DNA of 64,000 nt from Rhizophagus irregularis. Its lineage: Eukaryota. Below are positions 9,501 to 64,000 of the stretch, piece by piece (within the stretch, counting starts at the first letter, position 1; every line of letters begins with the position of its first letter). The position numbers and the translations under genes were made by a program. The notes beneath the pieces were generated by a model that saw only the letters and a program-made list of their open reading frames with translations, was not told where the DNA came from and did not search any database. The stretch covers positions 3,534,001 through 3,598,000 of the forward strand of contig NC_089435.1 in assembly GCF_026210795.1 (NCBI RefSeq), read 5' to 3'.

Positions 9501-10470
9501 TTAATACTAATTCTCCAAATTTTTTACTTATAATCTTTTCACTTTCAGACCAAATAAAAAGATTATGTTGAATTATTAACATAATTCTCCAATCTACATA
9601 ATAAGATGCTACCGGATATTTAAAACTTAAACTCTGACGTATTTGAGTAAGCAGTGATAAGATTGAACAATTATCATTTGGAAGAGTAACTCCTGCTATT
9701 GATAAAATTCCTGGTGTAATATTTAATGCAGCTTTAAGAAAATCTTTAGTTCTTCGTATAATTTCTTGCATCATCACGTAAACTATGAAGAGTATCTCGT
9801 AAATGGATTAATAAAAAATCAATATTATAATTACGCTTTTTAATTGCAATTTGATCATTATTTTGTTGATTGAATTGATTAAAATTTGTTCTAAAATTAT
9901 TATCAAGTCCTATTTCGATAACCTGAGTTGTTTTACGATGAATTTCTGCAAATTTTGCCAAAGAATTATAAACTTTATCTCGAAGTTCTTTACTAAGTAC
10001 TATTGGTGAAAAACATATCCGTTCTAAAACAGTAACCAAAATTCTTAAATGTAATTCCAATCTAGCTACACTTTCTTTTGAATAATGTTTAAAAGAAGTA
10101 TCAACTAAACCTTCTAATGAATTTTCTAAAACTTGAGACGAAAACTCATTTTGTAAATTTTCAAAAAGTAATTTAAGTGCATACAAATAACTTGATTTAG
10201 TTAGATTTTTTAAAAGTTCTTCTACTTTGTCATCTGGAGTAATGAATCCATCCTCTTCTAATTTGAGAAGGATACGATTGTTGAACATAGTATTTTCATA
10301 CAAAATCGTTTTATATGAAACAGGGTCATTATTTTCTAAGCTACCAGAAGCAGTATTGGTAGAAGAATTTCCACTCTGTTATTATATAAAATTAGTTTTA
10401 TTGATATGCAATTAATTAAAGTTTAATATTGTTTAAAATAATAATTTACCTGACTTGAACTTCCTTTCAT
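6515..10470 (-). pseudogene. Multi-exon RING/U-box-like + TPR-repeat protein gene, disrupted
   Basis: Exons with GT-AG borders: 10470-10450, 10375-7371, 7299-7221, 7143-6996, 6929-6786, 6709-6515. Contains CPI..CQH..CPNC RING-like motif and TPR helices. Frameshift near 9770 and two in-frame stops at 8088-8068 within an inverted segment. Confidence 0.8.
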
Positions 10471-23537: not shown

Positions 23538-25040
23538 TTAACCACAATAATGGTCCTCCTCCTCCTCTTCTTTTTCTTTATCATCACTTTTAGTCAAAAA
23601 TTTAATAGTACCCAAGTCTTCATATTTTCCTATTATTTCTAAAGTTTCCGAACTAGTATTATTATAATAACGATCTTCATCATCCACAATAATTATTATT
23701 GAAAGCAATTTTTTTGGTGTTCTTTCTTCCCAACTTATAAAAAATGATTCTAAATCATCTGGAGATAAGTCTGATTTTGAAATATTGTATATTTTTAATT
23801 CACAAAAATTATTTGGTGAATATTTTGCAACAGTTTCTAATACCTCCTTTTCAGATAAAAATTCACTAAAATAACCTTTACCACACCAAATTTTAATACT
23901 TTCTAAGTATTGACAACTAATAAATATAGTTTTTAATATATCAATTTCACCGTTATTAAGTATTACGAAAAGACTTTTAAGGTTTGGACAAAATTTAGCA
24001 ATAGATAAACTTAAATCTTTGTTATTTTCATCTGTATAAAACTTTTTAAGGGTTTTTCCATTATTTTCTAAAAATTTCATCATATACTGAGGATTTGGAC
24101 ATTGATAAGGAATTTTTAAAACTTGTAATTTAGAAAATTTAATATATTGTAACATTCTAAAATCTTCAAAACCTGTTCCATCAAAAAATGAAAATAAAAA
24201 TTCTTGTAAATTTGAAAATAAACTGATAAATGAAAGTGGTAATTCTTCATTACCACCATAAAGTTGTAATTTTGTTATTGTATGAGAGTGTTTTGTTATA
24301 GCAGGTATAATATCTGCCCAACTTTTCTCAAAAGCTGATAGAGATAATTTTTTTAAATTATTTTGTGAAGAAATTAATTCTTTTAATTCATTTGAAACAT
24401 AATCATCAAATGATATAGAAATTGATTGTAAATTATGGCATATTTGAGAAAGTTGATGAAAAAAATCAGAAGGAAGACTTGAACTACAACATAATTCTAA
24501 AAGATCTCTTGCTCCAGGAAAATGAGAGAAAGAAATACTAGTGTAAATATATTGTCCATGATAATAGTAAGGATGATAAGTCAATTTTCTCAAAGAAAAA
24601 ATTTGGTTTGCAAACATTTTGATAATTTCATTTGCAACTAAAATATTTTTATCTTTTGAACTTAATAAATTAATAGATGGTTTATTTTTGAAAATACTAT
24701 TAATCATCCATTTAATCTCATAAATTGAAAGAGCTTTACAAAATGATGCATAATTAAACAGTAATGGTTTTGAAGTAGGGGTTGAAATGAAAATTTTATT
24801 ATCACACAAGAGTTTTTTTGATTCATCTGGAAGACAAGCAATTAATGTACTAAGGATTGATGATGCTACCCTCGATGAACGTTGTTGATAATTAAAATTC
24901 CAAATATTCCTCCACAAAATTCTAACGGAAATTTCGCACCAAAGATGATTAGCTAACAAGCATGAGTGCAGAGTGAATTTATCCTCCTCTAAATATTCAA
25001 AAATATCATTTAAACAATCAGTTGGAAGTTGACATGTCAT
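23538..25040 (-). CDS. F-box domain protein with LRR/RNI-like C-terminus
   Basis: Intact 500-aa ORF, LPTDCLNDIFEYL..LHSCLLANHLWCEISVRILW; collinear paralog of 13128-14711. Confidence 0.9.
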   Translation of the reverse strand: MTCQLPTDCLNDIFEYLEEDKFTLHSCLLANHLWCEISVRILWRNIWNFNYQQRSSRVASSILSTLIACLPDESKKLLCDNKIFISTPTSKPLLFNYASFCKALSIYEIKWMINSIFKNKPSINLLSSKDKNILVANEIIKMFANQIFSLRKLTYHPYYYHGQYIYTSISFSHFPGARDLLELCCSSSLPSDFFHQLSQICHNLQSISISFDDYVSNELKELISSQNNLKKLSLSAFEKSWADIIPAITKHSHTITKLQLYGGNEELPLSFISLFSNLQEFLFSFFDGTGFEDFRMLQYIKFSKLQVLKIPYQCPNPQYMMKFLENNGKTLKKFYTDENNKDLSLSIAKFCPNLKSLFVILNNGEIDILKTIFISCQYLESIKIWCGKGYFSEFLSEKEVLETVAKYSPNNFCELKIYNISKSDLSPDDLESFFISWEERTPKKLLSIIIIVDDEDRYYNNTSSETLEIIGKYEDLGTIKFLTKSDDKEKEEEEEDHYCG

Positions 25041-26926
25041 TTTATTATTTCAAAAATTTTATTTTGGTATTTACGACTTAATGGAGTTATTTAAATTATT
25101 TTATTAAACACCTGCTGACCTATTGTGTAATAAACATTGCCATTAATTGATTGCACTATTGTGTAACAAAATTTTTGTTGATCGGTATAAATTTAGATCA
25201 TATGATGTAATCGCAGTCTAGATCGCGAAAATTAGAGCTGACTCATTTGATGTAACAAAAATTTTTTTGTTGATCGGTATAAATTTAGATCATATGATGT
25301 AATCACAGCGGCTATTGAGATTTACGACTACCTATTGTAATCTCAGAACTCGGAATTTTAGTTCATTATCAAAACTGACTGGTAATAAATTTGTTACACA
25401 GCGCATATGATTAGATGATGCGCGATTAATTTACACTGTTTTAAGTATTGATGATGTGCCAACTTATGAAATTTTGAATGGGATAAACTCATTTTACATT
25501 CATGTTTGTTGATTAATCGGTTATGGTGCAAAATTTGTGTAAGAATTTGTGTAAGAATATTTGGAATTTTAATCGTCAACAACGTCTATTGAAGGTAGCG
25601 TCATCATTCTTAGTATATTGATTGTTTATCTTCCTAATAACCAAAAGAGTTCTAATACAATATTAAAATTTCATTTAAACTTCCACTTCGAAATGATCAC
25701 TGCTTAATTACAAAGTTCTTCTCAATTGTAAAATGAGTAAAATAGTCAAATTTTAAAATTAATGAAATAATGGATGGCACACCTATAAGGATCCATTCTT
25801 TAGAACTGACCTTTTATAATAATAACTAGAGAAGTCGGTGACTAGATTTTAATAATATTTGTAGTATTCATTATTTATCATGATAAAGTATTTTATAATA
25901 ATATTTTTTTATTAAAGATTTAATAAAAGTTTTTAAGTTATAACGCATTTAAATTATGAAATAAGAAAATTCCATCACATTATTTCCATTTAATTTATCG
26001 TGATGTGTAATAAATAAAAAATTTCAATCAATGACAGATAAAGTATGGACGGGCAGATTAACAAATTCTGAATATTAGTAGATAGTTTGATTTTTCTCAA
26101 ATTAAGAAAAAACTTACAGGGAACTTAATTTTTTTTCAACCTTGATCTATTTTAGAAACTGTTGTTAAAAAATCATAAATTAACTAGAAAACGTATATTG
26201 TAAACCCAGGGCGGCGAATGTAAATAATTTAGGAAAACGCAACGATTTAATAAATTTTATAACGTTTTCAAAAATTGTTTTTTCTAAGATCAGACGTGCG
26301 TGATGCGGCGTGACAACCGGCGGATATCTTATGTTACAATTATTAGTGTTCTGCTCTTCGTTCTAGACGAATGAAAGTCGTACCAGAACCCTGGAAAAGC
26401 ATGTAGGTAAGTTGAAGAAGTGCGTAAAATAATCGTGTAGGTCTTTGCTTTTATGAATAATTTCTTGATAATACTAGTTAGGAATTATCATTATAATCCG
26501 GCCCTGAAAGAGATGTAAAATTTTTTGGCTGCAACTTGCCTATACGAGACCGCCCCGTACCCAATAATATCTCATATGTTAATTTAATCGCGATTATGTG
26601 TATAAAACTTGTGCACTTGTATAAGATGCTTTGCAAATTAAACATGAATCTCTATTCTCACCTAATTCAAATTTATTGGAAGACAAATCTTGTAATCGTA
26701 ATTATGAACTTCTAATTATATTGATAATTTTATAGATCTTTTCTCTCGGATGAAAATACCTAAAAATTGAAAGTATAGCATAGTCAGTAATTAACTGAAG
26801 GCTAATAATAGATATAATCATCACGCATCGTATTTTATTTCAAAAAAAAATATATATATTTGTTAAAATAATTTAAAATGATGCTTTATTATAATAAAAA
26901 TTACAAATTTATTTATATAATTAATC

Positions 26927-28690
26927 TCAATAAACTGCCAAAATGACTTTTAACATATCCTTTGCTTCTTTGATTCCGTTTTCAGCCGCTTTTGTGTACC
27001 AATAAATTGCTTTGTCATAATTTATATCAGCTTCAATACCATAATAATAGCATCTTCCTATATAATTTTGTGCTGCTGCATATCCACTTTCAGCTGATTT
27101 TGTATGCCATTCAAATGCTTTTTTCATATTCTTATCTACACCTATACCAAACTTATAACAATTTCCTAAATTATTTTGTGCTATTGCATATCCATTATTA
27201 GCTGATTTGAGATACCATTCGAATGCTTTCGTATTATCTTTTTCTGTCCCTATGCTATTTTCATAACAATAACCTAAACTACATTGTCCGTTAACACATC
27301 CTGCATCAGCTGATTTTATATACCATTCAAATGCTTGTATTTCATCTTTGTCTGTTCCTTTTCCATATTGATAACAATTCCCTAAATTATTTTGTGCCAT
27401 TGCACATTTGTTATTAGCTGATTTAAGATACCATTCAAATGCTTTTGTATTATCTTTTTCTGTCCCTATGCCATTTTCATAACAATAACCTAAATTACAT
27501 TGCCCACTAACACACCCTGCAATGGCTGATTTAAAATGCCATTCAAATGCTATCATTTCATCTTTGTCTGTTCCTATACCATGTTCATAACAAAGTCCTA
27601 AATTACATTGTCCATCAGCATATCCTGCAAGAGCTGATTTAAAATACCATTCAAATGCTTTTTTATCATCCTTATCTGTCCCTATTCCATGTTCATAACA
27701 AAGCCCTAAATTACATTGCCCATTATGTAATCCAGAAATAGCCGATTTCATATACCATTCAAATGCCTTTTTTTCATCTTTATTTGTTCCTTTACCATTC
27801 TGATAACAATATCCCACATAATTTTGTGCTTTTGAATTATTTGATATTGCAAGTTTTAAATTTATTTCAAAGATTTCCTTTTCATTTTTATCTTGGATAG
27901 ATTCATTTTGTTCAGATTTTAAAAAAAATTCATATGCTTTTTTTTCATCTTTTTTTGTTCCCTTTCCATCCATATAACAAATTGCTAAATTATATTGTGC
28001 ATTTAAATTATTTTCTTTTTCAGCTAAACTTAAAAATAATTCAAAAGCCTTTTTATAATTAGTTTTAACACCTCTCCCACTTTGATAACAAATAGCTAGA
28101 TTATATTTTGCTTCCAAATCATCATTTTCAGTTAATTCTAGAAGTTTAATAAATTCATTTTGTTTCAAATTAATATCTAAAATGATATCCTCATAATAAA
28201 ATAATGATAATAAATATTTTCCAATAATTATATTTTTATTTTTTAATGAATTAAAAGTATCATTATCATCATCATCCTTTTCAATTAAATTTAATTGATT
28301 AAAATTTTCATTTAAAGAATAATCATTTTCAATTTCATTATTAATAGCCAATAAATAAAATTCTTGAGCTTTTAACTTATCCTGATCACAACCAATACCA
28401 AGTTTATAAAATAATCCAATAATACTTGTGAACCAAAAATTACTTTTTTGATGATTTTTCATTAATTTAAGAATATTTATAGAATCTTTATAATTATTAT
28501 TATTATTATTATCATCAAGATAATATTTTATCCAATCATTTGAAATTTTTTCGAAATCATTAAAATCTTTTGTTTCAATAATTTTATGATAAAAATCTTT
28601 TAAAAATTTTTTCAGGAAATTTTCATCATCTTTACTAATGAGATTAAAATCTATAATTTTTTCAATATCGATAATTTTATTAATATCCAT
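26927..28690 (-). CDS. Sel1-like repeat protein
   Basis: 587-aa ORF with 36-aa repeats of the form GQCNLGxCYExGIGTxKDxxKAFEWYxKSA. Confidence 0.92.
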   Translation of the reverse strand: MDINKIIDIEKIIDFNLISKDDENFLKKFLKDFYHKIIETKDFNDFEKISNDWIKYYLDDNNNNNNYKDSINILKLMKNHQKSNFWFTSIIGLFYKLGIGCDQDKLKAQEFYLLAINNEIENDYSLNENFNQLNLIEKDDDDNDTFNSLKNKNIIIGKYLLSLFYYEDIILDINLKQNEFIKLLELTENDDLEAKYNLAICYQSGRGVKTNYKKAFELFLSLAEKENNLNAQYNLAICYMDGKGTKKDEKKAYEFFLKSEQNESIQDKNEKEIFEINLKLAISNNSKAQNYVGYCYQNGKGTNKDEKKAFEWYMKSAISGLHNGQCNLGLCYEHGIGTDKDDKKAFEWYFKSALAGYADGQCNLGLCYEHGIGTDKDEMIAFEWHFKSAIAGCVSGQCNLGYCYENGIGTEKDNTKAFEWYLKSANNKCAMAQNNLGNCYQYGKGTDKDEIQAFEWYIKSADAGCVNGQCSLGYCYENSIGTEKDNTKAFEWYLKSANNGYAIAQNNLGNCYKFGIGVDKNMKKAFEWHTKSAESGYAAAQNYIGRCYYYGIEADINYDKAIYWYTKAAENGIKEAKDMLKVILAVY

Positions 28691-31600
28691 AATTTTTATT
28701 TATTAATAATTTTTATTTTTATTAAGAATTTTTGATGGATTTTGATTTTTATTTAATTAACGTTAATAATTAAAAAATTTAATAAAAAAAAAAAGAATTT
28801 TTGGCGTTCGTTATTAATATTACCAAATGTGGTACAACAGTTATGGCACAGTAGAGTATTCGTTTACAAGCAATTTAGTAAAGATTTTCTGTTGTAACAC
28901 GTAATCTGGAATTCATTACCGACAGTTCCGTAAATTATCCATATACAGTAATTAAAGCAAGAAGTTTACGACTACTTCTGTTACTTGCCTTTGAAAAGTG
29001 CTAACTGACATGATGAAATAATTTTACTATCTATCAGTTTAGAACCTCAGATAGAAAATAATTTAAATCTATATTTTTTTTTTTTTTTTTGGTAAATGAA
29101 ATACTTTATTATTTACTATATGATAGAGAACATACAAAATTTATAAAATACATCTTGAGTTTGGTAATACCATTACCTCCTTCCATACCAAAACGTTACT
29201 ACATACAGTAATGTTGTAGTACTATTACCTACTACCTTAAATATTGTACAGTAAGTTCCAATTTTGTATCCCATTATCTAATTCGTTTACTTGAGTATTC
29301 ATTACCCTATTTTTTATATTTTCTACCTAACTTTTTTTTATTAATTTTAGAATTTTTTGTTATTATCACTATTTTTTATATCTTCCGTACTCCCCTTATC
29401 AAGTTATCCTCCTCTGACATAAATATCCTTTTTCTTTTATCCAATTTACCTATTCCCTGAGACTTCTCAAAACTTACGACTTCTTCACATCTTATTTTCC
29501 AAATATAAATCACATATCTTTAGCATCTTCGAATCAGATTTCTTATGTTGTTCATTTTTCCAAATCTTCAAATTAATAAGTCCTCGTGTTAATAAATTCT
29601 CTAAAGGAAATAATCGTGATCTTAACGCTACAATATCATAACACTTTTCCCTTTCTTTTTTGTGATCGCCTCTTTCCCATACAATTGAATTTTTATTTTG
29701 ACTGCATGATTTCATGACTCTACTTGATCATTACACCTGATACATTTGTTTGAAGAAATACCAAAAAATTTACGTTGATATAATATTTCATACATTGGCA
29801 ATAATTTTGCTACGTTGAATTCATTACGAATGATCATAAAAGAAATCGGTCAATTAATGTCATAACTTATATTCGTTACAAACAAATTTTCTAATTGTTT
29901 TAAACCCATAAGTTCCGCCTTATTGTTAAGATGACTAAGGCCTTTTGCCCATTTTCTATAGCATCCTTCTATAATAAAATTATTCCATCGTAAGTTGAAT
30001 TTGCCAACTAATATATTATTCTGACATCTAACATTGACGACGTATTATCCATTAAATCCTTCTTCATTGTTTCAATCTTAACGTCAAATTCTGACATCTC
30101 TTCTAGTATATCGTAACTAAAACTAACTCGTAAACTTTTCTCTGTGAATATTTGAAATAACAAAACATAATTTTTGAAATCTAATTTTTTCCTGTTGCTC
30201 ATCTCATCCCGAAAATTTTCTAATTCTACGAAAAATTTCTTATTTATTTCTATAATAATTTTTTTGTTATCAGGAAACAGTCCTGAAACTATTATTAATG
30301 TTATCAACATTCTTTTTATTTCGTTCATGCCTTTTTCAATACTAAATTTAAGAAATATTTTTTCAATTTTCTTGTATCTCGTCATTAATTTGATTTCTAC
30401 ACTTCCTAAGTTTGTCTTTTCCCGTCTATATTACTAATAATATTTAAAAAAATAGATGCTGCCGTGATCGTCAATTTATCAATAATTCTCTTTGTTTGTA
30501 CAAATATAATCTAACCATATCAAAAAAATCCGTCTCTTCTATATCTTCCATACCCGTTCTTTTGACTTCATTTACTTCTTTATCTTTGTTGTTAATTAAA
30601 ATATTATTTATCTATAATATTAAATATACTCTCATATGGTTTAATACCTTTTCCCCCTTTAATAAATTATTTTCCTTACTTTAATTTCTCTACTTAATCC
30701 ATCCCCAATATTACAATGTAATAAACAAATATCATCATCTTTATTTCTAGAAATATTCTTACTACATCCCGTGCACTTTTTTAACCAAGGAGAATCATTA
30801 TCGTCGTAAACTTCTGAATCCTCCATCATATAATGAATACCTATACTATTAAATTCTTTACTCTTCAATTTTCATTTATATTTACAAAACTTCACTCCAC
30901 TGTTTCGTTCCACGTAATCAATCTATCACTTTTCTTAGAAACTGTATCATTTTTTTTAAAATAATCTATTGATTTCTGTTCCGCCTTATTAATTTTATAT
31001 TTATCTTTGATCTCTCGTGTCTCCTCTATACATACAAGTTGTTTCAACCGTTTATACCAAAGAGGTTCACCGCCACACTTATTAAATCCATTTTCCACGC
31101 AAAAATGATGCCACTTCATTAAATACTCCTTATCGTGTTCTATGATTTGATCTAAAAACAAAATCTTCTTATTCATTAACTGCATTTTCCATTTATTGTA
31201 TACTTTTTCACTAAAGATGTCAACTAATTCATAAAGTCCCCCGAATATCTATGATCTTTATAATTATCATTTATTAATTCATGATCGCAAATAGATATTC
31301 TGTTGTCTTTTAGCATTTTTAGACTATCATTCGCGTAACTGTGATCCACCCTTTTGAAATTCACATTTTTACTTTCTCCAACGCATTTTGCTGTCCAATA
31401 TGTATTTTGTAAATTTATCATGTTCATCTTAAAAATAATTTTTTTTCGATCCTTCGACCATTAATGTAACACATTATATTATATTCTTAGACAAACTTTC
31501 TAGTTCAGTGCATAAATGTTTTTTACCTTTAATATATCCTTATCGTAAATTATGGCGTTAGGACAACCTATTGCCAGATTACAGCTATGTTTAAATATTT

Positions 31601-35748: not shown

Positions 35749-38700
35749 ATGGACCAATGTATTGGTAAAGGTAAAGCATATAACATGAATAATAATATAA
35801 ATTAGAATTATTCAAAATTATTAAACCAAATTTACAATATAACAAAAACTAGTTTCCAGTAATATTGAAGAATTTGAAGAAAATGGCACTGGAGAATTTG
35901 AAAGTAGTAGTATTAAGGAATTTGAAGGAAGTAACACCAAGGAATCTAAAGGTATATCAAACAAGCTGAAATATTAAGTTTTTATTTATAAACAATTCAA
36001 ATACTACAATCTAACTATATTATATAAATATTATGTTAAATATCTAGCTCGTAAGTTAGTTAATATAATTGAATAAAATGAATTACTCATTATTTTTATT
36101 GTATTCCATATAACTAAATAATTTATTTAATGGTTAATAATACTGTAGTTGGTAAGTCATCAGTCATTTAAATCTTTAGTCCTTTACTTTATTTATTCTA
36201 CATAACATTCAAATAACCAAATTTTTTGTTTAAATAACTATTTAATAATTAATTATATTACAGATGGTAAGTTACAATAATATATATATTATATTTATTT
36301 ATTTAATATTATACATAATTCAACTAATTATATTTTAATTTAAATAACTAGATTGTAAGTAATATATATAATTTACAGTAAATACTTCTATATTATCTTT
36401 ATATCTAACTAATTAATAATTAATAATACTACAGGGTGTAAGTTATATGATATCTATATCTATATTATTTATATAATTTAACTAATTTCTTTATTTAAAA
36501 AATTATTTTGTAATTTAATTTAGTTGGTAAGTTATAAGTTATTTATTTAATTCTATTATTACTTATTATTATAATATTTACATATAATTTAAACTAACTT
36601 ATTTTATAGCTGGTAAGTTATTTATTTAGTTCTATTATTATTGTTATAATATTTTACATATAATTTAAACTAACTAATTTCTTTATTTAAAATTATTAAA
36701 TAATATAGGGTGTAAGTTATTTATTTAATTCTATTATTACTTATTGTTATAATATTTTGAACTAACTAATTTTTTTATTTAAAAAATTATTTTATAGCTG
36801 GTAAGTTATTTATTTAATTCTATTATTACTTATTTTTATAATATTTTACATATAATTTAAACTAATTATTTAAAAAATTATTAAATAATATAGGATGTAA
36901 GTTATTTATTTAATTCTATTATTACTTATTGTTATAAATATTTACATATAATTTAAGCTAACTAATTTCTTTATTTAAAAAATTGTTTTGTAATTTAATT
37001 TAGTTGGTAAGTTAGAAGTTATTTATTTAATTCTATTATTACTTATTATTATAATATTTACACATAATTTAAACTAACTATTTCCTTATTTAAAAAATTA
37101 TTAAATAATAAAGGGTGTAAGTTATTTATTTAATTCTATTATTACTTATTGTTATAATATTTATGTATAATTTAAACTAACTATTTCCTTATTTAAAAAA
37201 TTATTAAATAATAAAGGGTGTAAGTTATTTATTTAATTCTATTATTACTTATTATTATAATATTTATGTATAATTTAAACTAACTAATTTCTTCATTTAA
37301 TAGATTGTAAGTTATAAGTTATTTATTTAATTCTATTATTACTTATTGTTATAATATTTACATATAATTTAAACTAACTAATTTCTTTATTTAACAAATT
37401 ATTTTATAGCTGGTAAGTTATTTATTTAATTCTATTATTACTAATTGTTATAATATTTTACATATAATTTAAACTAACTAATTTCTTTATTTAAAACATT
37501 ATTAAATAATATAGGGTGTAAGTTATTTATTTAATTCTATTATTATTTATTGTTATCGTTCAGCCCAATAGGATCATGCAGATTTTCATAGACCGATATT
37601 TTTATTAGCCATAGCAATAACACATGATTGATATAATAGAGTGGAGTAAAAAAATGGTGTATATGAATATTTTGTAGGAAAAGTTTAATTAAAATTTATA
37701 AAGTAGATTAAAAATGAAATTTAGTATGATCAAAAACGTCAGAACGATAACACACTTGGATGTGGGCTATATCGGTCACAGGGACCTTCATTGATTGGTG
37801 AAAATGGCCACTACGTGGCCCATTTTCATCCAATCATTCAGTCCTGTGACCGATATAGCTACTCCATCATCCAATAACTATTTATTATAATATTTACATA
37901 TAATTTAAGCTAACTAATTTCTTTATTTGAAAAATCATTTTGTAATTTAATTTAGTTGGTAAGTTATAAGTTATTTATTTACTTATTGTAATATTTACGT
38001 ATAATTTAAACTAACTAATTTCTTTATTTAATAGATCGTAAGTTATAAGTTATTTATTTAATTCTATTATTACTTATTGTTATAATATTTACGTATAATT
38101 TAAACTAACTAATTTCTTCATTTAAAAAATTATTAAATAATATAGGGCGTAAGTTATTTATTTAATTCTATTATTACTTATGATTATAATATTTTACATA
38201 TAATTTAAACTAACTAATTTCTTTATTTAAAAAATTATTAAATAATATAGGGAGTAAGTTATTTATTTAATTCTTATTGTTATAATATTTACATATAATT
38301 TAAACTATCTATTTATTTAAAAAATTATTAAATAATAGGGAGTAAGTTATTTATTTAATTATATTATTACTTTTTGTTATAATATTTACATATAATTTGC
38401 TAACTAATTTCTTTATTTAAAAAATTATTAAATTATATAGGGAGTAAGTTATTTATTTAATTCTATTATTACTTTTTGTTATAATATTTACGTATAATTT
38501 GAACTAACTAATTTCTTTATTTAAAAATTATTTTATAGATGGTAAGTTATTTGTTTAATTCTATTATTACTTATTGTTATAATATTTACATATAATTTAA
38601 TTTCTTTATTTAAAAAATTATTAAATAATATAGGGCGTAAGTTATTTATTTAATTCTATTATTACTTATTGTTATAATATTTACATATAATTTAAACTAA

Positions 38701-41267
38701 CTAATTTCTTTATTTAAAAAATTATTTTGTAATTTAATTTAGTTAGTAAGTCATAATTTATTTATTTAATTCTATTATTACTTATTGTTATAATATTTAC
38801 ATATAATTTAAACTAACTAATTTCTTTATTTAAAAAATTATTTTGTAATTTATTTTAGTTGGTAAGTCATAAGTTATTTATTTAATTCTATTATTACTTA
38901 TTGTTATAATATTTACATATAATTATATAATTTAAACTAACTAATTTCTTTATTTAAAAAATTATTTTGTAATTTAATTAGATTGTAAGTCATAAGTTAT
39001 TTATTTAATTCTATTATACTTATTGATATAATATTCACATATAATTTAAACTAACTAATTTCTTTATTTAAAAAATTATTTTATAGATGGTAAGTTATTT
39101 ATTTAATTCTATTATTACTTATTGTTATAATATTTACATATAATTTAAACTAACTAATTTCTTTATTTAAAAAATTATTTTGTAGATGGTAAGTTATTTA
39201 TTTAGTTCTATTATACCTATTGCTATAATATTTACATATAATTTAAACTAACAAATTTCTTTATTAAAAAAATTATTTTATAGATGGTAAGTTATTTATT
39301 TAATTCTATTATTACTTATTGTTATAATATTTACATATAATTTAATTTCTTTATTAAAAAATTATATATGAACTAGCTTGTAAGTATTTCTATTGTTATA
39401 TATTTTATATAATATTTATTTGTTAACTAAATTTCTTCATTTAAAAAATATCTGTTACTTTAGTTGGTAAGTTGTAAATTACAGGTTATTATATGTATTT
39501 TCCAAAAATTAAGACTTATATTACATTAAATTCCTATTTAAATTTTAGAGTAAGTAATAATTTATTTTGTGTAAATTATAATACAATACTATAATATAAT
39601 TTTAATTATTTAAATTTATAGATTTGGGAAAAGTGGAAATACAATTATAGATGATTTTATTCTTGAAAAACAATTGAGATGGATCCCTTTTAACAAGTTT
39701 AAAAATGTTGAATATCTTAACGAAGGAGGATTTGGTACTATATACAAAGCTATTTGGGTAAAGAATAATGGAAATAAATATAAAGATAATGAAGATGATG
39801 AAGATAATGAAGATGATAAAGATGATGAAGATGATGAAGAAGGTGAAGATGATGAAGATGATGAAGAAGGTGAAGATGATGAAGAATATAAAGAATATAA
39901 AGAAGATGAAGAAGATGAAGAAGTAATTCTTAAATGTTGCAAGAAATTAAATGAAAATTTAAATGAATTTTTGAAAGAAGTAAGATAGATTGATAGTATA
40001 TTATTTTTTATTTTTATAATTTAGATTAATAAATTATTATTATATTTTATAGTGGAAATATCATACAAGTGTTTTAAGTTCAAATGATATTATAAATTTT
40101 CATGGATTTACAGAAGATCCAAATACTTCAAAATATATGGTAGTAATGGATTATGCAAATAAAGGTAGTTTAAGAGAAAATTTAACAAGTATAGTCAAAA
40201 ATAATTGGAATCAAAAATTATATATGTTGTACGAAATTATTTCTGGACTAAGTAAGATACATGGAGAAGAACTTATTCATTGTGATTTTCATGATGGTAA
40301 TATTTTAAAACATAATGATGAGAATAAGGATAAAATTTATATTAGTGATTTAGGATTATGTCAACCTGCAAAATCATTTTTGAAAAAGTATGATATTTAT
40401 GGTGTTATACCATTTATGGCTCCTGAAGTTTTAAGAGGCAAATCTTATACTCCAGCTAGTGATATATATAGTTTTTCTATGATTATGTGGGAGTTTACAT
40501 CTGGAATACCACCATTTAACAATCGAGCACATGATCTTCAGCTTAGTTTAAGTATTTGTAAAGGTGAACGTCCTGGAATTATTGAAAATACTCCACAATG
40601 TTATGTAAATTTAATGAAAAAATGTTGGAATAAAAATCCATTAAAAAGACCATCTACTTCAGAAGTGAAAGGTGTTTTTGAGAATTGGATTATCCGTCCT
40701 TATAAAAATGAAGTCAGTAAAGAATTAAAAAGCAACATTATGGAATTTATAAATGCACCAATTGGGCATAACAATCTTACTACTAAATCTCATCCTAAAG
40801 CATGTTTTACAAGTCGCTTACTTGATTTTACTAGTAAAAAATTGAATGAAATTCTTGAAAGTGAAAATTTACAAGCATATCATAAAAGTCATTCAGATTT
40901 GAATGATTGTGTTATTAAAGATTTGAGGTCATTAGGTATATACTATAATATATAAAAAATTAATCTTGCAAATTATTTATATGAAATTAATTAATTTATT
41001 TAATTATTAAAACAGATGAGAATATTAATAAAAAATTGAATGAAATTCTTGAAAGTGAAGATTTACATGCTAGTGTAAAAGCAAATGAAATAAATGAAAT
41101 GCTAGTAAGTGAAGATTTGAATAATTATATAATTAAGGATCTGGGGTCATTAGGTATGTACTATGATATATAAAGAATTAATCTTGCAAATTATTTATAT
41201 TATTTATGTGAATTAATTTTATTTAATATTTAATTATTTAGATATTAAAAAAGCAGATGAAAATTAA
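35749..41267 (+). CDS. Tyrosine-kinase-like protein kinase with micro-exon-encoded N-terminal segment (predicted 540 aa, 39 exons)
   Basis: Exons 35749-35770, 35853-35951, 32 x 3 nt (36048-39466), 1 nt (39549), 39622-39979, 40053-40935, 41016-41153, 41242-41267 total 1623 nt with no internal stop. Motifs EGGFG, VILK, HCDFHDGN, DLG, APE. The kinase part is secure; the micro-exon part is predicted. Confidence 0.85.
36048..39549 (+). repeat. Tandem array of ~100-bp intron + micro-exon units
   Basis: 33 occurrences of AG|exon|GTAAGT, 32 with exactly 3 nt between the sites; spacers of about 72-120 nt (one 438 nt), most with branch-point-like (a)ctaac/ctaat. Confidence 0.9.
37557..37880. mobile_element. 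Insertion in one intron of the micro-exon array, with internal hairpin
   Basis: Interrupts the unit consensus tgttat^aatattt; its start tatcgttcagcccaatagga is the reverse complement of 63018-63037; hairpin at 37766-37859. Confidence 0.7.
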
Positions 41268-45997: not shown

Positions 45998-46510
45998 TTA
46001 TAAAAAACTCCAAAAGTCAGGTACAGCAGAAGAATCACTAGGACCAAAAATAGCAGCTGAACAGGCTAATGCTTCAACATTAGGTGGTGTTCCATGTTGC
46101 ATTGCAACTAAAATAACGTATGATTGAGGCAAATCTTTTGGTGCAGTGTATTTCTGCGTTGTAGAAAATGCAGTTCCGGCTTTAATCGGACAAGTAACTC
46201 CAGGTATTGTACAAATATCCACAACAAGGGGAATTCCTATGGGTGCTTGCGCGACAAGATCGATGAATCCAAGACCTAACAAATCTCCAGCGACAACATC
46301 TTTTTTCAATGTTCCCTTAATGTCAAACGTTTCTTCTTGTCCAGGAACGAAAGGATCAGGTGTCATTTTTACATCGAGTCCCACTACATCTGGTGGCAAA
46401 CCGGGACATGGTGAAAATTTAGTTTCTCTTTTTACAAGTTCAAGTGGTGCTGCATTGACCGCAAAAAGCATAGCAAATAAAACGAATGCCAAAATAAAAA
46501 TTCGATTCAT
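45998..46510 (-). CDS. Secreted MD-2-related lipid-recognition (ML/NPC2-like) protein
   Basis: Signal peptide, KR processing site, FSPC..V.MTPDP..PG, DIC..GVTCPIKAG and terminal AC cysteine pattern. Confidence 0.88.
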   Translation of the reverse strand: MNRIFILAFVLFAMLFAVNAAPLELVKRETKFSPCPGLPPDVVGLDVKMTPDPFVPGQEETFDIKGTLKKDVVAGDLLGLGFIDLVAQAPIGIPLVVDICTIPGVTCPIKAGTAFSTTQKYTAPKDLPQSYVILVAMQHGTPPNVEALACSAAIFGPSDSSAVPDFWSFL

Positions 46511-48628
46511 GATTACTTAAATTTTCTTGTAATTAGATTTTTATTAAAATAAATGTTTATTATTTTTTTTTTTTGAATTCGGATTAAATCAGTTACTTCT
46601 TTTATAAGAAAAAAACAACAACCAAAAGATTAACTTTGTTTCATTTATTCTTTTTCTTCGTATTAAATTTATTAATTTGCAAATCTAAAATCTTAGAATA
46701 GAACGATTATCATCATGCTATATATCAATCATGTTGGAAGAAAATCATGCTAAAATAATTATGTATTATTACTGCGTTGGATATCTTAACTAATTTCGTT
46801 TTTGTTTAAAAAAAAAAATTTAATAGACATCTCTGGTCGTTGTTTCTTATCGGCTGTTCTTTGTTATGAAATTCCAGCCGTCAGAATTTAAAAAAGGATA
46901 TGGGAGTGTAGAAATTTGAGATCATGTGAGGAATACAAATTTTAGGGGCTTTTATTAAGAAAGGAAATAAATTGTCTATTATAAAAATAAAATAAAATAA
47001 AATAAAAAAGGAAATAAAAAATAGGGGGACGGATAATCATTCATCTAAAATTAATTTTAAATGAAATTATGTCATTCAAAATAAATCGTAAAGTTTATTC
47101 GAATGCATAACTATTTCATACAAGAGGCATCACCATATGATCCCGAGGGGGAATAATAGTGCTCCAAACTAGTAAGGTAAACCGGGTGTTTCTCTTACAA
47201 GAATCTTTCATTTAGACACAAACAGAGTTATAATGGCAAATATTGTCCCAACGCATTTCTAAATGTCGAGATTTTCAATGCACATTCGGCATTCCATATG
47301 CCCTTATTCTCAAACACTATTGATTATAATAAAGAAGTTCCGAATTTCGTTCAAACGTTAGAAAGAGTTAAAAAACTCATACCAGCCGAGAATAAGTTTC
47401 GTCTAGATAGATTCCAAAGTTTCGGCCAGGAATGAAGAGTTTAGCAAAACCACATGCCCGAGCCCTTTCATCTTCTATTACTTTCCATTACTCCATTGTT
47501 ATTTCATTTTTTTTATTAGCATCTTTCTCCTTGATCATTGTAATTTATTTATCTTTTTATTTATTGTTATTGTTTCTTTTATTTGTATCACTTCATTAAA
47601 AATACAGTTTAAAATCGTAAATGTATGACTTAAATTTTAATATTTGCAAATAAAATTTCATTAAATAAGATTATTTTGAATAATATGTTTGCAAAAAAAT
47701 TTTTTTTAAAAAAATATCTTTTGTTAAAAAATCAGCTGTCAGCCGATCAATTATATATTGTACATCATGTGACATATTTGAAAAAAAAACCCAGGCGACA
47801 ATCACCCAGGAGACGTTTAGCAATTCCCTTAAATTTTTACTATTTTACTATTTTGACTTATAATAAACCGAAATCTGCCATTTCTCTATACTTAATTTAC
47901 TCATTATAAATAGAAAACATAATTTGTTTATTTATATTATTAATTTATTTATTTTAATGAAGCTTATTTATAAAAGTGAGATCAACAATTTGCATATTTA
48001 TAAATTGGTCTTTTTTTTTATAATAACTTTCACTTAAAAGATCTTTTAAAAGCATGCCAAGCTCCCCCATTAAAATGACCTCTTTTTTAATTCAAGATGT
48101 GTGATCGTCAATGATACTCCGATTCATAATGTTTCATTAATTGAATATCATAATCTCATTTAACTGCATGTGGTAATTTTGTTAAATGAGACGATTGATA
48201 GACTGGTTACAGTACGGTTTCCTGAATGTCATTTTACTGAAATCAATTTTCCGATTGGCCATTTTCCGACCGGATCATTTCCTGAATATCTCGAACTTTA
48301 CGATATATATATAAATTTCCTTTTTTAGAATAGATTTTGTTTATATTTATAGTTAAATCACAAATGACAGAAAAATAAAGATTAATTCCTTAAATAATAT
48401 TTTCCTATAATTTTTAGGCTTCTTTTTAACCCATTCCATTTTTTTACCAAAAGATTATTTGATTACAAAATTTAAAATAAAAATAACTGATAACGATAAT
48501 TTTCAAACAAATATTTTAATATATGATAAATTGATAATAAAAATAATGATACAATAGTATGTAACTATATATATACTGTACGTAAACTTTTTTTGCGTAA
48601 GAACCATAAAAGAAAAATTCATCTGAAC

Positions 48629-56479: not shown

Positions 56480-59400
56480 TTAATTTTCAATTATACATTC
56501 CACACACTCAGAATCTTCTTTAACTAAGATTTCAGTAAGTTTGCGACTTGTATAATATGCTTGTGAATGATGTTGTATAATAGAAGTACCTGCTTGTCCT
56601 TGTACTAAAACTTTGTTTGCTTCTACAAATTCCAACATATCATTTTTTAACTGTTTATCAATATTAGGTACTTCATATTCATAATTATCATCCCTGTTTG
56701 TCTCATAAAATTTATTAATACTTCTAACCCATTCAGATATGATATTTTCAAGCATTATTATGTTTGGTCTATTAGAAGGATTTGTATCCCAACATTTTTT
56801 CATTAAATCTACATAACATTTTGGAGTATTTTTTATAATTTCAGGACGTTCCCCTTCACAAATACTCAGGGTAAGGTGATAATCATGTGCTTTACGATTA
56901 AATGGAGGAATACCTGATGTAAATTCCCACATTATCATTGAAAGGCTATAAATATCACTTGCTGAAGTATAGGGTTTTTTTCTTAATATTTCAGGCGCCA
57001 TATAAGGCAAAACTCCATAAACTTCATTTAATTTACTATCAGAATCTTGTAAATCATTTATAGGTTTACATAATCCTAAATCAATAATAAATATCTCATT
57101 GTTATCTGACATTAAAATATTACCATCATGAAAATCACCATGAGTTAAATTTGATTCATGAATTACTTTAAGTCCTAGTATAATTCTTTTTAATAATTGT
57201 AACTTTTCTTGCCACTTAAATTTAATTATATCAGATAAACATTTTCTCAAACTTCCTTTTCTTGCATAACTCATTATTATTATATAATTTAAATTTTTTG
57301 GATCTTGGGTAATTCCAAAGAATTGAATAAATCTTGAAAATGATTTTTTCTGACAATTATAATGATATTTCCACTATATAATCGATAAAAAATTATTAAA
57401 TTTTTGCAAAAGAAAATAAATATACAATTAAATAATATAAGTACTATACCTCATCCAGAAATTTGCTATTTAAACTTGATGAATTATTAAGTGTTTTAAG
57501 AATAACTTCATAACCTGTTTGTCTATTCCATTGTTCTTTGTCAAAATTCCAACCAAAAATAGGTCCATCTGACCAGATAGCCTTATAAATTTCACTAAAC
57601 CCTCCTTTATTATAATGATTAATTTCTGATAATTTATTATAAGGTATCCACTCTAAAATTTCATAACTATTTTTAGCATTTAGTTGTGCCTCTTGAATAA
57701 ATTTATCAATAAATTCATTTTTACTAGTCCACTTTGAAAAATCTTGTTGAAATCGTTTAGTATTACATTGTTGACACCACTGATAATCAGTATATGGTTG
57801 TTTGCATTCACTGCATAATTCAGATTTATTTCTAGGACTTATTTTGTTACTTTCTACCACTTTTTGATGCCAATAAAATGCTTTTTCTAAATTTATTTCT
57901 GTTCCTTTTCCTTTTTCATAACATATGGCTAAATTATACATTGCTTTAATGTGACCATTAACTGCTGCTTTTTGATACCAATGAAAGGTTTTTTCTAAAT
58001 TCTTTTCTGTTCCTTCTCCATTACAATATCTATTGGCTAAATTAAACATTGCTTCTTTAACACCATTTTCCGCTGCTTTTTGATACCAATGAAAAGCTTT
58101 TTCTAAATTCTTTTCTGTTCCTTTTCTATTATAATATCTATTGGCTAAATTAAACATTGCTTTAACATGATCATTTTCTGCTGCTTTTTTATACCAATAA
58201 AAGGCTTTTTTAAAATTCTTTTCTGTTCCTTTTCCATTATAATATTTATTGGCTAAATTAAACATTGCTTCTTTATCACCATTTTCTGCTGCTTTTGATG
58301 CCAATAAAAGGCTTTTTCTAAATTCTTTTCTGTCCTTTCTCCATTTTCATAATAAATGGCTAAATTAAACATTGCTTCTTTATAGTCATTTTCCGCTGCT
58401 TTCTGATACCAACAAAAGGCTTTTTCTAAATTCTTTTCTGTTCCTTCTCCACTTTCATAAAATATGGCTAAATTAAACATTGCTTTAATATGACCATTTT
58501 CTGCTGCTTTTTGATACCAATGAAAGGCTTTTTCTAAATTCTTTCCTGTTCCTTCTCCATTATTATAACATGTGGCTAAATTGAACATTGCTTTTTCATC
58601 ACTACTTTCTGCTGCATTTTGATACCAATAAAAGGCTTTTTCTAAATTTTTTTCTGTTCCTTTTCCATCTTCATAAAATATAGCTAAATTATACATTGCT
58701 TCTTTAGCACCATTATCTGCTAACTTTTGATACCAATGAAAGGCCTTTTCTAAATTCTTTTCTATTCCTATTCCACTATAATAATACATGGCTAAATTAA
58801 ACATTGCTTCTTTAAAGTCATTTTCTGCTGCTTTTTGACACCAAAAAAAGGCTTTCTCTAAATTTTTTTCTGTTCCTTTTTTATTATAATAACATATTGC
58901 CAAATTAAACATTGCATTAATATGACCATTTTCTGCTGCTTTTTGATACCAAAAAAAGGCTTTTTCTAAATTTTTTTCTGTTACTTCTCCATTTTCATAA
59001 AATATGGATAAATCAAACATTGCTTCTTTAATACCATTTTCTGCTGCTTTTTGATACCAATGAAAGGCTTTTTCTAAATTCTTTTCTGTTCCTTCTCCAT
59101 TATAATAGCTATTGGCTAAACTATACATTGCTTTAACATGATCATTTACTGCTGCTTTTTTATACCAGTGAAAGGCTTTTTCTAAATTCTTTTCTGTTCC
59201 TTCTCCATTATAATAGCTATTGGCTAAATTAAACATTGCTTCTTTAATACCATTTTCTGCTGCTTTTTGATACCAATAAAAGGCTTTTTCTAAATTCTTT
59301 TCTGTTCCTTCTCCATTATAATAACTATTGGCTAAATTAAGCATTGCGTTTTTATCTCCATTTTTTGTTGCTTTTTGATACCAATAAAAGGCTTTTTCTA

Positions 59401-61342
59401 AATTTTTTTCTATTCCTTCTCCATTAAAATAGCTATTGGCTAAATTAGTCATTGCTTTTTCATTACCATTCTTTGCTGCTTTTTTATACCAATAAAAGGC
59501 TTTTTCTGAATTCTTTTCTGTTCCTTCTCCACTTTTATAAAATATAGCTAAATTAAACATTGCTTCTTTATAGTTATTTTTTGCTGCTTTTTGACACCAA
59601 TAAAAGGCTTTTTCTAAATTCTCTTCTGTTCCTTCCCCACTTTTATAAAATATGGTTAAATTAAATATTGCTTCTTTAATACCATTTTCTGCTGCTTTTT
59701 GATACCAAAAAAAGGCTTTTTCCAAATTCTTTTCTGTTCCTTGCCCATTATAATAACTATTTGCTAAATTATACATTGCTTTAATATAATCATTTTCTGC
59801 TGCTTTTTTATACCAATGAAAGGCTTTTTCCAAATTCTTTTCTGTTCCTTTTCCATTATAATAGCTATTGGCTAAATTAAACATTGCCTTTTTATCACCA
59901 TTCTCTGCTGCTTTTTGATGCCAATAAAAGGCTTTTTCTAAATTCTTTTCTGTTCCTTCTCCATTATTATAACATATGGCCAAATTGAATATTGCTTCTT
60001 CATTATCATTTTCTGCTGCTTTTTGATACCAATAAAATGCTTTTTCTAAATTTTTTTCTGTTCCTTCTCCATTTTCATAAAATATGGCTAAACTATTCAT
60101 TGCTTTTTCATTACCATCCTCTGCTGCATTTTGATACCAATAAAAGGCTTTTTCTAAATTCTTTTCTGTTCCTTCTCCATTTTCATAAAATATGGCTAAA
60201 TTGAACATTGCTTCTTCATCACCATTTTCTGCTGCTTTTTTATACCAATAAAATGCTTTTTCTAAATTCTTTTCTGTTTTTTCCTCATTCTCATAAGATA
60301 TGGCTAAACTGCTCATTGCTTTTTTATTACCATTTTCTGCTGCTTTTTTATACCAATGAAAGGCTTTTTCTAAATTCTTTTCTGTTCCTTCTCCATTATT
60401 ATAACATATAGCTAAATTGAACATTGCTTTAATATGACCATTTTCTGCTGCTTTTTGATACCAATGAAAGGCTTTTTCTAAATTCTTTTCTGTTTCTTCT
60501 CCACTATAATAGATATTGGCTAAATTATACATTGCTTTAATATGACCATTTACTGCTGCATTTAGATACCAATAAAAAGCTTTTTCTAAATTCTTTTCTG
60601 TTTCTTCTCCATTATAATAGCTAATGGCTAAATTAAACATTGCTTCTTCATTACCATTTTCTGCTGCTTTTTGATACCAATAAAAGGCTTTTTCTGAATT
60701 CTTTTCTGTTCCTTCTCCATTTTTATAATTATTGGCTAGATTAAATATTGCTTCTTTAAACCCATTTTCTGCTGCTTTTTGATACCAATAAAAGGCTTTT
60801 TCCAAATTCTCTTCTGTTCCTTCTCCATTATAATAGCTAATGGCTAAATTAAATATTGCATAAATATGACCATTTTCTGCTGCCTTTTGATACCAATAAA
60901 AGCCTTTTTCTAAATTCTTTTCTGTTCCTTTTCCAGTTCTGTAATTATTGGCTAAATTAAACATTGCATCAGTATCACCATTTTCTGCTGCTTTTTGATA
61001 CCAATAAAAGCCTTTTTCTAAATTCTTTTCTGTTCCTTCTCCATTATTATAACATATTGCTAAACTGAACATTGCTTCTTCATCACCATTTTCTGCTGCT
61101 TTTTGATACCAATAATAGGCTTTTTCTAAGTTCTTTTCTGTTCCTTCTCCATTTTTATAATTATTTGCCAAACTAAACATTGTTACTTTATCACCAATTT
61201 CTACTAATTTTTCTAAAGAATTAGTATATTCCTTACACCATAATTCTTCAGTAAGAGGTTTATTGCAATATGAACAATTTTTCGTATTTATATTATCAGT
61301 ATTTTTATTTGAGATATTAGATTTACTAAATTTAGTTTCCAT
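56480..61342 (-). CDS. Sel1-repeat (~30 units) + tyrosine-kinase-like kinase fusion, with a 1-nt frameshift
   Basis: 108-bp repeats encoding AMFNLAxxYxNGEGTEKNLEKAFYWYQKAAENG; frameshift at 58293-58296; intron 57449-57374; kinase motifs KGGFS, VILK, HGDFHDGN, DLG, APE. Confidence 0.88.
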
Positions 61343-62389
61343 TTGGCTATTTTAAGGATTTATTTTATTGAAAAAATTTTTTATTTTTTTTTTATAATTT
61401 TTTTTGACAATTTATTTTTATTTAATATCATGAAAATTTTTTATAATACTTGAAATAACGTAGTTGGATAATTATGCTACGCTTCAATTTTTTTTAAAGG
61501 GCTAAGAACCTAATAACCCTGATTGTTTTTTTGTGACTAAAGAAAATTATTATTATTTTATCTTTTATTTCACTAACGTAAGGAGGGTTGGTCAAACAAA
61601 AAAATATTCGGAAACGATACTTTCATAGGTTTTAATATATTTTTTTTATTATTATTCCGGATTGTAACGAAAGGCTAGTTTCACAAAATTTTTGTGTTTT
61701 TATGATTAGTTACATTAGTTACATTTGTGCTTACCGTTCCAAATTTTGCAGATCATCGGAATTCTGCAGATCAACGGATATCTATATTTTTTTAGTATCA
61801 ATCAAGACATGAAGAGCAAAATATGATGACATATATATCATTAAAATTATATAAGCAATGTCTTTCTTCCATCTTTATGGCCTTCAGGCCTGAAATAAAT
61901 ATCTTTCCGGAATTCTATTTTCAAAAAACTTATTCATTTTTTGTGCTACATGATTGACATCAATTTCATCCATTTTGAAAATATTACTAAGCTTATGTAA
62001 TACTTACATAAGTTTAAATTGTGTTATATAAATTTTCTTTTTGGAATTCTAGTTTAAAAATATCATGAATTAATCACTAATTTAACCAAAAGTAGAAATT
62101 AGGCTGGATTATCTTGCCATACCATCCTTGCAGGTCATTTTGATCGGCAGTCTGCTTTTGTTTTTAGATTTGAACAAGTTGCAAGAGAGAGATCTTATTT
62201 AATACAAAACTATAGTCCCCGGGCGAAAGCAATGGCGGTGTGAATGAAATCTCATTTTTAAGTAATAGCACGAGCATTTTCCCAATTTGGAATTATTAAT
62301 TGTTTCCAAATTGGTAAATAGGCTTTACATTTAAAATCAAACGAGAAAAAAATAATATACAATAAATTTTTTCTGTTTTTTCTTTTAAA

Positions 62390-62718: not shown

Positions 62719-64000
62719 AACACGATAGATACGAGTATCATTTGGTAAATGATAATAAAACTCAAATATAATATTATGAGGCGCAAGAGTCGTAGAATTA
62801 ATATTATTAATGTGCAAGGTGTTTAAATTCGTATCAGATACACCAACATTGTTAATTAAAGTATGTTGATTATTTTCATTATTATTATTAAGAATTTGCA
62901 TTTTTATGCTATTTTAATCCACTTCATAAACTTTATTTAAACTTTTCCTATAAAAATTTCTCCACTTTATGTATTATTGCTATGCCTAATAAAAATATCG
63001 GTCTACGAAAATTTACGTCCTATTGGGCTGAACGATATTATTAGACAGATTTTATTATATAAAATAAATATTATTTTCCATCTCTATTATTGAAAATATT
63101 TAAAATATTATTATTATTATTTTATATAATAAAGCATTAATACATCAAATTTTTCCATGATTTTCTGTAATTCAAAAAGTCGTGATTTTTTAATTTCTTT
63201 AACACAAAATTGATACAGCAGAAGAAGGTATTATTATTATTATTATTAAGAACATTTTTTTATTTATTATAATGTAAAATTTAATTTAGATTAGTTCAAA
63301 CATTTCATTATTTTATTACATTATAATGATTAAATATTTATTTAAATTAATTTTCTATTATAGTAATTATGATAGAATGTTCAAATTTTATTAAATCTTT
63401 TAATATCTTTAAATAAATCAATTTTTTATTATGATAATTATGATAGAAACTAAATTTTTGGTCAATTATAATTAAATTTTATAAATTTTTTATTTAAAAA
63501 AATCAACTAAAATTATATTTTAACATATTCCAAAAAAGTACTTTTTTAATGAAGAGAGGGCAAAGGAATTTGTAATTTGATCGTCATTAAACAATTAAAC
63601 AATCGCAAACTTTATTTTTTTTAAAAAAAAATTTTTTTTTTTGCTCTTCTTACTTTTCCAAATTTTAGTCAAAACTAATTTTGGATGATAATATCGAAGT
63701 TGGTGAAGATCCAAATGAATAATATTTTGCGCGTATATGATTATACCGCCGTTCTCCTTTAAGATTAAGGCGAACTTTGGCTTTCAATAAAAAGAATGAT
63801 AATCATGATGTCTTGTCTCACATAAAAATTGTCAAATATTTCACCAAAAACTTTTCAAATTTTTCCACAATATTAAAGTTATATACCAATTTTTTTTATT
63901 ATATTAAAATTTTTGTTATCTAGATATATTTATAGTGGAGTTATTTTATTAAATGAACAAGAAACTTCAGAGTTTTGGTCGTCGCTTCTTCAAGAACTAA

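Follow-up and report, generated by a model that had tools for sequence, protein, structure and literature searches.

The single A at position 39549 of the window (the whole 64,000-nucleotide stretch of Rhizophagus irregularis DNA analyzed here, from contig NC_089435.1) is very probably a real, routinely included one-base exon, which turns the phase 1 of an array of three-base exons into the phase 2 required by a protein kinase exon. This exon was strongly supported for the paralog family and showed its testable features at the family level, and the gene in the window presumably splices as its paralogs do. The DNA of the window was AT-rich and eukaryotic (GC 0.15-0.35). An ATG exon at 35749, a 99-nt exon 2, 32 triplets, the lone A, and four downstream exons gave a model of 39 exons and 540 amino acids (Table 1), in which GT-AG ends were found at 38 of 38 introns, and the frame and the kinase motifs were intact.

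Table 1. Predicted features of the kinase gene (positions of the window).
Feature	Position	Strand	Basis
Exon 1, predicted; 22 nt coding, ATG, phase-1 donor	35749..35770	+	Sequence and frame; N-terminus shared with predicted Rhizophagus proteins P0063, P0049, and P0051
Exon 2, predicted; 99 nt, acidic, Glu/Ser/Gly-rich in the phase-1 frame	35853..35951	+	Phase-1 frame matches P0063, P0038, P0103, and P0104
Array of 32 units, AG-NNN-GTAAG	36048..39466	+	Predicted splicing; paralog transcript ends parse into similar triplets
Last two triplets, CTT and TTG	39377..39466	+	xTT-TTG in all four loose-end consensi; intron 33 diverged from the repeat
82-nt intron upstream of the lone A	39467..39548	+	GT..AG; without a YTRAY match; retained in run X3
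One-nucleotide exon A, second base of the Glu codon GAA	39549..39549	+	Sequence, frame, paralog transcripts; kept in L003
72-nt intron downstream of the lone A, GTAAGT..TAG	39550..39621	+	Spliced out of the X3 contig in which the upstream intron is retained
First kinase exon: FGKSGN motif, glycine loop, Asp/Glu-rich insert, catalytic Lys	39622..39979	+	Joint 39979>40053 in X1, X3, and X4
Main kinase exon: HCDFH, SDLG, and MAPE motifs	40053..40935	+	Pfam PF07714, PF00069
Two predicted C-terminal exons, 41016-41153 and 41242-41267 (stop)	41016..41267	+	C-terminus shared with P0097
Insertion of ~320 bp with inverted repeats inside intron 18	37551..37873 (ends approximate)	.	Repeat arms

The lone A was found in the context TAG-A-GTAAGT, flanked by GT-AG introns of 82 and 72 nt (72-120 nt for the other introns of the gene, apart from one of 438 nt), and both intron ends described in an earlier note on this DNA were confirmed in the sequence. 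That note had also placed the upstream introns in phase 1 and assembled a GAA codon from three exons, and this held with the ATG at 35749: 34 of 34 introns upstream were in phase 1, the kinase exon at 39622 needs phase 2, and the junction codon was G+A+A, with one base from each of three exons. Inclusion of the A left 540 amino acids open; when it was skipped, with the acceptor at 39622, the frame closed at codon 82, and when the upstream intron was kept, at codon 76. The motif TAGNGTAAG occurred twice in the window, where 1.0 was expected, and 29 of 100 shuffles yielded at least as many; being no commoner than chance, it was not used as evidence by itself.

On the other hand, the fit of the frame had been taken as an independent check of the whole model, and this did not stand: exon 2 and the triplets were open in two frames, and alternative joins also stayed open. 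The second frame of exon 2 contained an internal ATG, and the 32 units were free of stops in both phase 0 and phase 1, phase 0 being hydrophobic. This second frame of exon 2 ran without a stop through all 32 triplets as a hydrophobic stretch, by constraint or by composition. The related claim that skipping would frameshift the kinase was correct for the acceptor at 39622 and failed for another AG, at 39649-39650, which is in phase 1: a join there after the skip keeps the frame open and drops ten residues. Because exon 2 was open in two frames and this AG would rescue the skip, the frame argument was not decisive, and only transcript data can choose among the routes.

Runs were labelled as RNA by inference from splice joints and exon-restricted cover, none of them being on record as RNA. 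The splice joint 39979>40053, with GT..AG ends, was detected in X1, X3, and X4; X7 showed cover on exon positions only in the stretch examined, with no listed splice joint, and X2, in which the introns were covered, behaved like DNA. Loose ends before 39622 were present in 12 contigs from three studies (X1, 4; X3, 3; X7, 5), and all three consensi of these ends closed with TTG-A after a triplet xTT, none ending in AGTAA. The last three triplets of the X1 consensus were identical to those of the window, and the same TTG-A ending was obtained from 3 contigs of X1 at a stricter likeness of 85%, as overlapping and not independent data. When read back from the kinase frame, the consensi were stop-free in phase 1, and polar rather than hydrophobic. 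These readings are of consensus letters, not of single contigs or raw reads, with an agreement of 0.61-0.72 over 30 letters. The contigs at the junction were paralogs, 80-94% identical to the window; zero-mismatch contigs covered 39641-39754 (X1) and 39641-39751 (X3), and started short of the junction. The cDNA signature predicted in the earlier note (TTG, A, and ATTTGG, with two A's) was recovered in the paralog consensi of three runs, but not in contigs of this gene itself, which start at 39641.

At least 17 contigs reached the acceptor (X1, 4; X3, 6; X7, at least 7), and at least 16 of the 17 started exactly at 39622, a start unexpected for the skipped form because its G would match 39621. 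Zero depth over 39610-39621 was observed in X1 and X7. One contig of X3 (depth 4.9, 86% identical) started at 39619, so without the extra A, and may represent the skipped form, an unspliced molecule, or a differently built paralog. As for the contrary outcomes named beforehand (an AGTAA exon, another acceptor, or no extra A), AGTAA was absent from the consensi and the starts were those of the acceptor at 39622, with this X3 contig as the one departure. Assembled contigs lose rare forms, so that low-level skipping could escape and contigs yield no ratios. In the DNA-like X2, no variant at 39546-39555 was present among the 40 of 72 variant rows listed, and this was not counted as evidence. As read from transcripts, the lone A of the paralogs could, in principle, derive from a different structure of their genes.

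The two introns around the A behaved differently in X3. One contig kept the upstream intron through TTTAG-A and then jumped to 39622, and a second spanned exactly 39467-39549; the donor directly after the lone A is used in this X3 paralog contig. Depth in X3 was 5-23 over the upstream intron, with no cover over 39550-39609, and X1 and X7 were likewise without cover over 39550-39609, which was covered in the DNA-like X2. Only one study showed the upstream intron retained, and this retention, rather than skipping, was the deviant form observed. A YTRAY branch-point match within the last 48 bases was found in 35 of the 38 introns, and introns 1, 22, and 34 (the 82-nt intron upstream of the A) had no such match there. 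The captured intermediate points to an order of intron removal: with moderate confidence, we propose a sequential removal, in which the downstream intron precedes the upstream one. The retained-intron form by itself gives no kinetics, and the retained introns beside the lone A may belong to unfinished pre-mRNA. If the downstream intron leaves first, the A would already head an ordinary long exon when the spliceosome encounters it, so that a one-base exon would never need to be defined, and the upstream intron, without a consensus branch point, would be the slow step. Stepwise removal of the flanking introns has been proposed for the Arabidopsis APC11 exon, with reference to second-intron-first splicing around the 9-nt exon of potato invertase (PMC4674806), and frequent intron retention beside microexons has been reported in plants (PMC8831610).

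Three alternative readings, which are not strictly exclusive of the preferred one since minor isoforms could coexist, were weighed against these data. The earlier note had proposed that the lone A could act as an on/off gate, since skipping it would shift the frame of the kinase; in a wider form, either skipping the A or keeping the upstream intron would, in certain conditions, leave the kinase frameshifted or truncated. The stops at codons 82 (skip) and 76 (retention) would provide such a gate, the X3 contig from 39619 agrees equally with a skipped TTG junction and with an unspliced one, several X3 contigs had retained the upstream intron, and the one-nucleotide exon of VPS55 is isoform-dependent in some plants (PMC8831610). 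Nevertheless, this proposal was unsupported by the contigs that reached the acceptor, at least 16 of 17 starting at 39622 and one, from X3, at 39619; X1 and X7 had zero depth over 39610-39621, no form was tied to any condition, and retained introns are common beside microexons (PMC8831610) and may be unfinished pre-mRNA. A regulated gate is, thus, unlikely, and the lone A is better read as a structural frame adaptor than as a demonstrated switch.

It is more doubtful still that this copy skips the A and uses the AG at 39649-39650, in frame and minus ten residues, or that it is a silent or decaying copy. The former join gives an open frame, which the N-termini of the P0063 and P0051 models end in a way to fit, and for either version it counts that the junction contigs were paralogs, none coming from this gene, and that the array carries an insertion. 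The contigs aligned from 39622 and not from 39651, however; the AG at 39649-39650 was altered in some paralog contigs of all four runs, and the residues lost would include a family-conserved motif, SGN..IDDFI, which lies between the two acceptors and was matched widely in a search of representatives (best 150 of 643). The GT-AG ends at all 38 introns, the intact frame, and the zero-mismatch contigs of the first kinase exon in X1 and X3 also speak against these readings. The least probable of the alternatives, and in our view a very remote one, is a real exon of 5 nt, AGTAA (39549-39553), which would join phase 0 to the kinase, so that the array is read as a hydrophobic, membrane-anchor-like N-terminus, as in many database models. 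In phase 0 the 32 units do form a hydrophobic stretch without stops, the corresponding frame of exon 2, with its internal ATG, is open as well, and xK precedes the FGKS motif in 25 of 62 database homologs (SK in 16 of them). In spite of this, the loose-end consensi all ended in TTG-A and none in AGTAA, contradicting the 5-nt exon for the majority form; the retained-intron contig was cut immediately after the A; translation of the 5-nt form from the ATG at 35749 would end at codon 74; and the database models are predictions, several of them partial and mutually inconsistent.

Conservation of AG-A-GTAAGT in relatives, which the earlier note had suggested as a check, was seen in the one homologous genomic locus available (1 of 1). 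A metagenome scan returned 4 loci, three of which were chance matches in a non-kinase context; the fourth, the true kinase homolog L003, kept AG-A-GTAAGT and the 72-nt intron with 96% column identity. A scan of prokaryote genomes gave 0 matches. In seven predicted database proteins, one of them named R. diaphanus, the end of the corresponding intron is translated along with the A, which hints indirectly that the seven loci have it too. A search with the 50 residues encoded at the start of the exon at 39622 gave 102 homologs among 106 candidates, mostly named Rhizophagus, and 62 of the 102 contained an FGKS-type motif. This motif was preceded by xK in 25 (SK in 16), LE in 3, R in 5, and other residues in 21, was the very start of the protein in 8, and was preceded by FE in none; a transcript-supported junction was modelled in 0 of these 62. 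The xK would be explained if GTAA of the donor had been read as exon in the database models. A search with the exon-2 protein gave 4 matches of 1129 candidates, and neither among these nor in the representatives search (best 150 of 643) was there a transcript-supported junction in the proteins inspected. The closest database model, P0097 (R. irregularis), shares 98% identity with the model of the window across two aligned blocks. It begins within the 82-nt intron, contains no array, and lacks the catalytic core, even though the frame of the window is open over 40053-40935. These results indicate wrong N-termini in public protein models of the kinase family, several of which, being in the hydrophobic frame, would falsely suggest membrane-anchored receptor kinases.

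The product of the gene is a predicted protein kinase (PF07714/PF00069). The main exon matched both families far above the cutoff: PF07714, E 5.7e-32 (111.5 bits), and PF00069, E 7e-31 (108 bits), and the kinase motifs EGGFG, VILK, HCDFH, SDLG, and MAPE were present. When the two long exons were scanned against Pfam, only kinase families and a sub-cutoff low-complexity match were obtained, with no NACHT or ankyrin; since the remaining exons are too short, the gene has no NACHT-ankyrin architecture. A tandem Asp/Glu-rich insert of ~50 residues is located in the kinase N-lobe exon at 39765-39920, and is absent from most homologs, e.g., L003. The neighbouring genes, all on the minus strand (56480-61351, 26927-28699, 7327-9807, 23538-25049, and 45998-46516), include a second kinase beside ORFs with Sel1 repeats (27 and 4 repeats); another Sel1 ORF, TPR ORFs, a weak F-box-like match, and an ML-domain ORF belong to the same set.

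The array of 32 three-base exons is a larger finding than the one-base exon itself. The pattern AGNNNGTAAG had 35 matches in the window, 32 of them inside the array, against 3.3 expected, and none of 100 shuffles reached 35. The introns of the array were 76-120 nt long, with one of 438 nt, and introns 8-32 were homogenised copies of one repeat (scores of 0.62-0.82 versus ~0.4 when shuffled). The introns flanking the A scored 0.35 and 0.38, equal to their shuffled controls (0.36 and 0.40), and an origin from the array repeat was not detectable in them. Intron 18 owes its 438 nt to an insertion of ~320 bp at 37551-37873, with arms at 37551-37589/37714-37752 (72%) and 37766-37782/37843-37859 (100%); a second, partial copy is found at 62912-63037 (71%), and the insertion is probably a small mobile element. 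Two units, 37114-37116 and 37217-37219, have AAG acceptors, the other 30 having TAG or CAG, and are candidates for more frequent skipping, as judged from the splice-site letters.

The ends of the paralog transcripts consisted of different triplets before a constant xTT-TTG-A; these triplet differences among contig ends may be differences between paralogs. As xTT-TTG occurred in all four loose-end consensi, a fixed adaptor is likely, and xTT-TTG-A would couple a variable N-terminal peptide to the kinase. The units being in phase 1, the codon of each residue combines the final base of one unit with the two leading bases of the following unit, and 15 amino acids are reachable by unit skipping. 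Of the 496 unit pairs, 3 produced a stop, whereas the shuffles averaged 25 (P = 0.034, by a shuffle that ignores the kinship of the units), a weak hint that stops may be avoided under arbitrary skipping of units. The junction codon X+A+A gave Glu after the 14 G-ending units and a stop after the 10 T-ending ones (of 32); since T+A+A is a stop, the last unit before the A must not end in T.

A wider reading, which we offer tentatively and regard as possible rather than probable, is that the kinase family is a splice-coded peptide library, in which a variable N-terminal sensor segment is dealt from dozens of phase-1 three-base exons, and the invariant TTG and the one-base exon serve as adaptor and proofreading gate. 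Skipping one unit would then delete a residue and rewrite its neighbour, and proofreading would consist in the stop made whenever a T-ending unit (10 of 32) comes to lie before the A. If true, the family would be a convergent counterpart of the truffle nank receptors, wired to kinases, and would provide a fungus long regarded as clonal with somatic diversity of proteins for sensing self and non-self, hosts, or endobacteria. Alternative splicing of the triplets within a gene would bear on the recognition diversity of arbuscular mycorrhizal fungi. Most interest is owed to the array that the one-base exon terminates. The exon itself is of interest because one-base exons are documented in few genes in the literature found, while here such an exon is apparently common to a whole paralog family, which provides numerous natural replicates for studying how an exon of the minimum possible size is spliced.

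The combination of an array and a one-base exon in a kinase family was not found in the literature searched, and none of the papers listed as matches dealt with one-base exons or arrays of microexons in Rhizophagus, most subscription journals lying outside the search; the available portions of PMC10234402 and PMC7539958, supplements apart, contained nothing on microexons. The closest single case is the one-nucleotide exon of Fusarium CYP621A, presented as the first in a fungus (PMC12940212). Like the exon described here, it is fungal, has the spliceosomal form AG-N-GT, supplies the middle base of a codon, and leads from phase 1 to phase 2; it was also missed by annotation, a miss common to both, and was confirmed by reads (PMC12940212). 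In CYP621A, however, the base is a G between two ordinary exons of a single-copy P450 gene (PMC12940212), whereas in the kinase of the arbuscular mycorrhizal fungus Rhizophagus it is an A after 32 three-base exons, and is repeated among the paralogs of a family. One-nucleotide exons are also known in plant APC11 and VPS55 (PMC4674806, PMC8831610), where, as here, the frame needs one base, the donor is GTRAGT, and the exon is absent from annotations. These are isolated microexons of conserved genes with no adjoining array, and were tested by RT-PCR or constructs (PMC4674806, PMC8831610), whereas the Rhizophagus lone A is known from assembled contigs of paralogs. The exon of VPS55 is present or absent by isoform in some plants (PMC8831610). 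The model for a gate is Trichoderma Xlr2, in which microexon inclusion decides whether a domain is made, and for which condition-dependent inclusion was shown (PMC11121469); by comparison, inclusion of the Rhizophagus lone A looks routine.

For the array, the nearest counterpart is the nank family of NLR genes in Tuber, with arrays of codon-sized, alternatively spliced exons (PMC4986451, PMC13449251, PMC10197012). Both are expanded families of a mycorrhizal fungus with tens of 3-nt exons. The nank genes are of the NLR type, belong to an ascomycete, and have reported alternative splicing (PMC4986451, PMC13449251, PMC10197012), whereas the Rhizophagus array lies N-terminal of a kinase domain, is accompanied by no NACHT or ankyrin match in the exons scanned, and is closed by a one-base exon. 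The Rhizophagus gene, thus, resembles the nank arrays in anatomy and may work alike, yet is not a nank gene.
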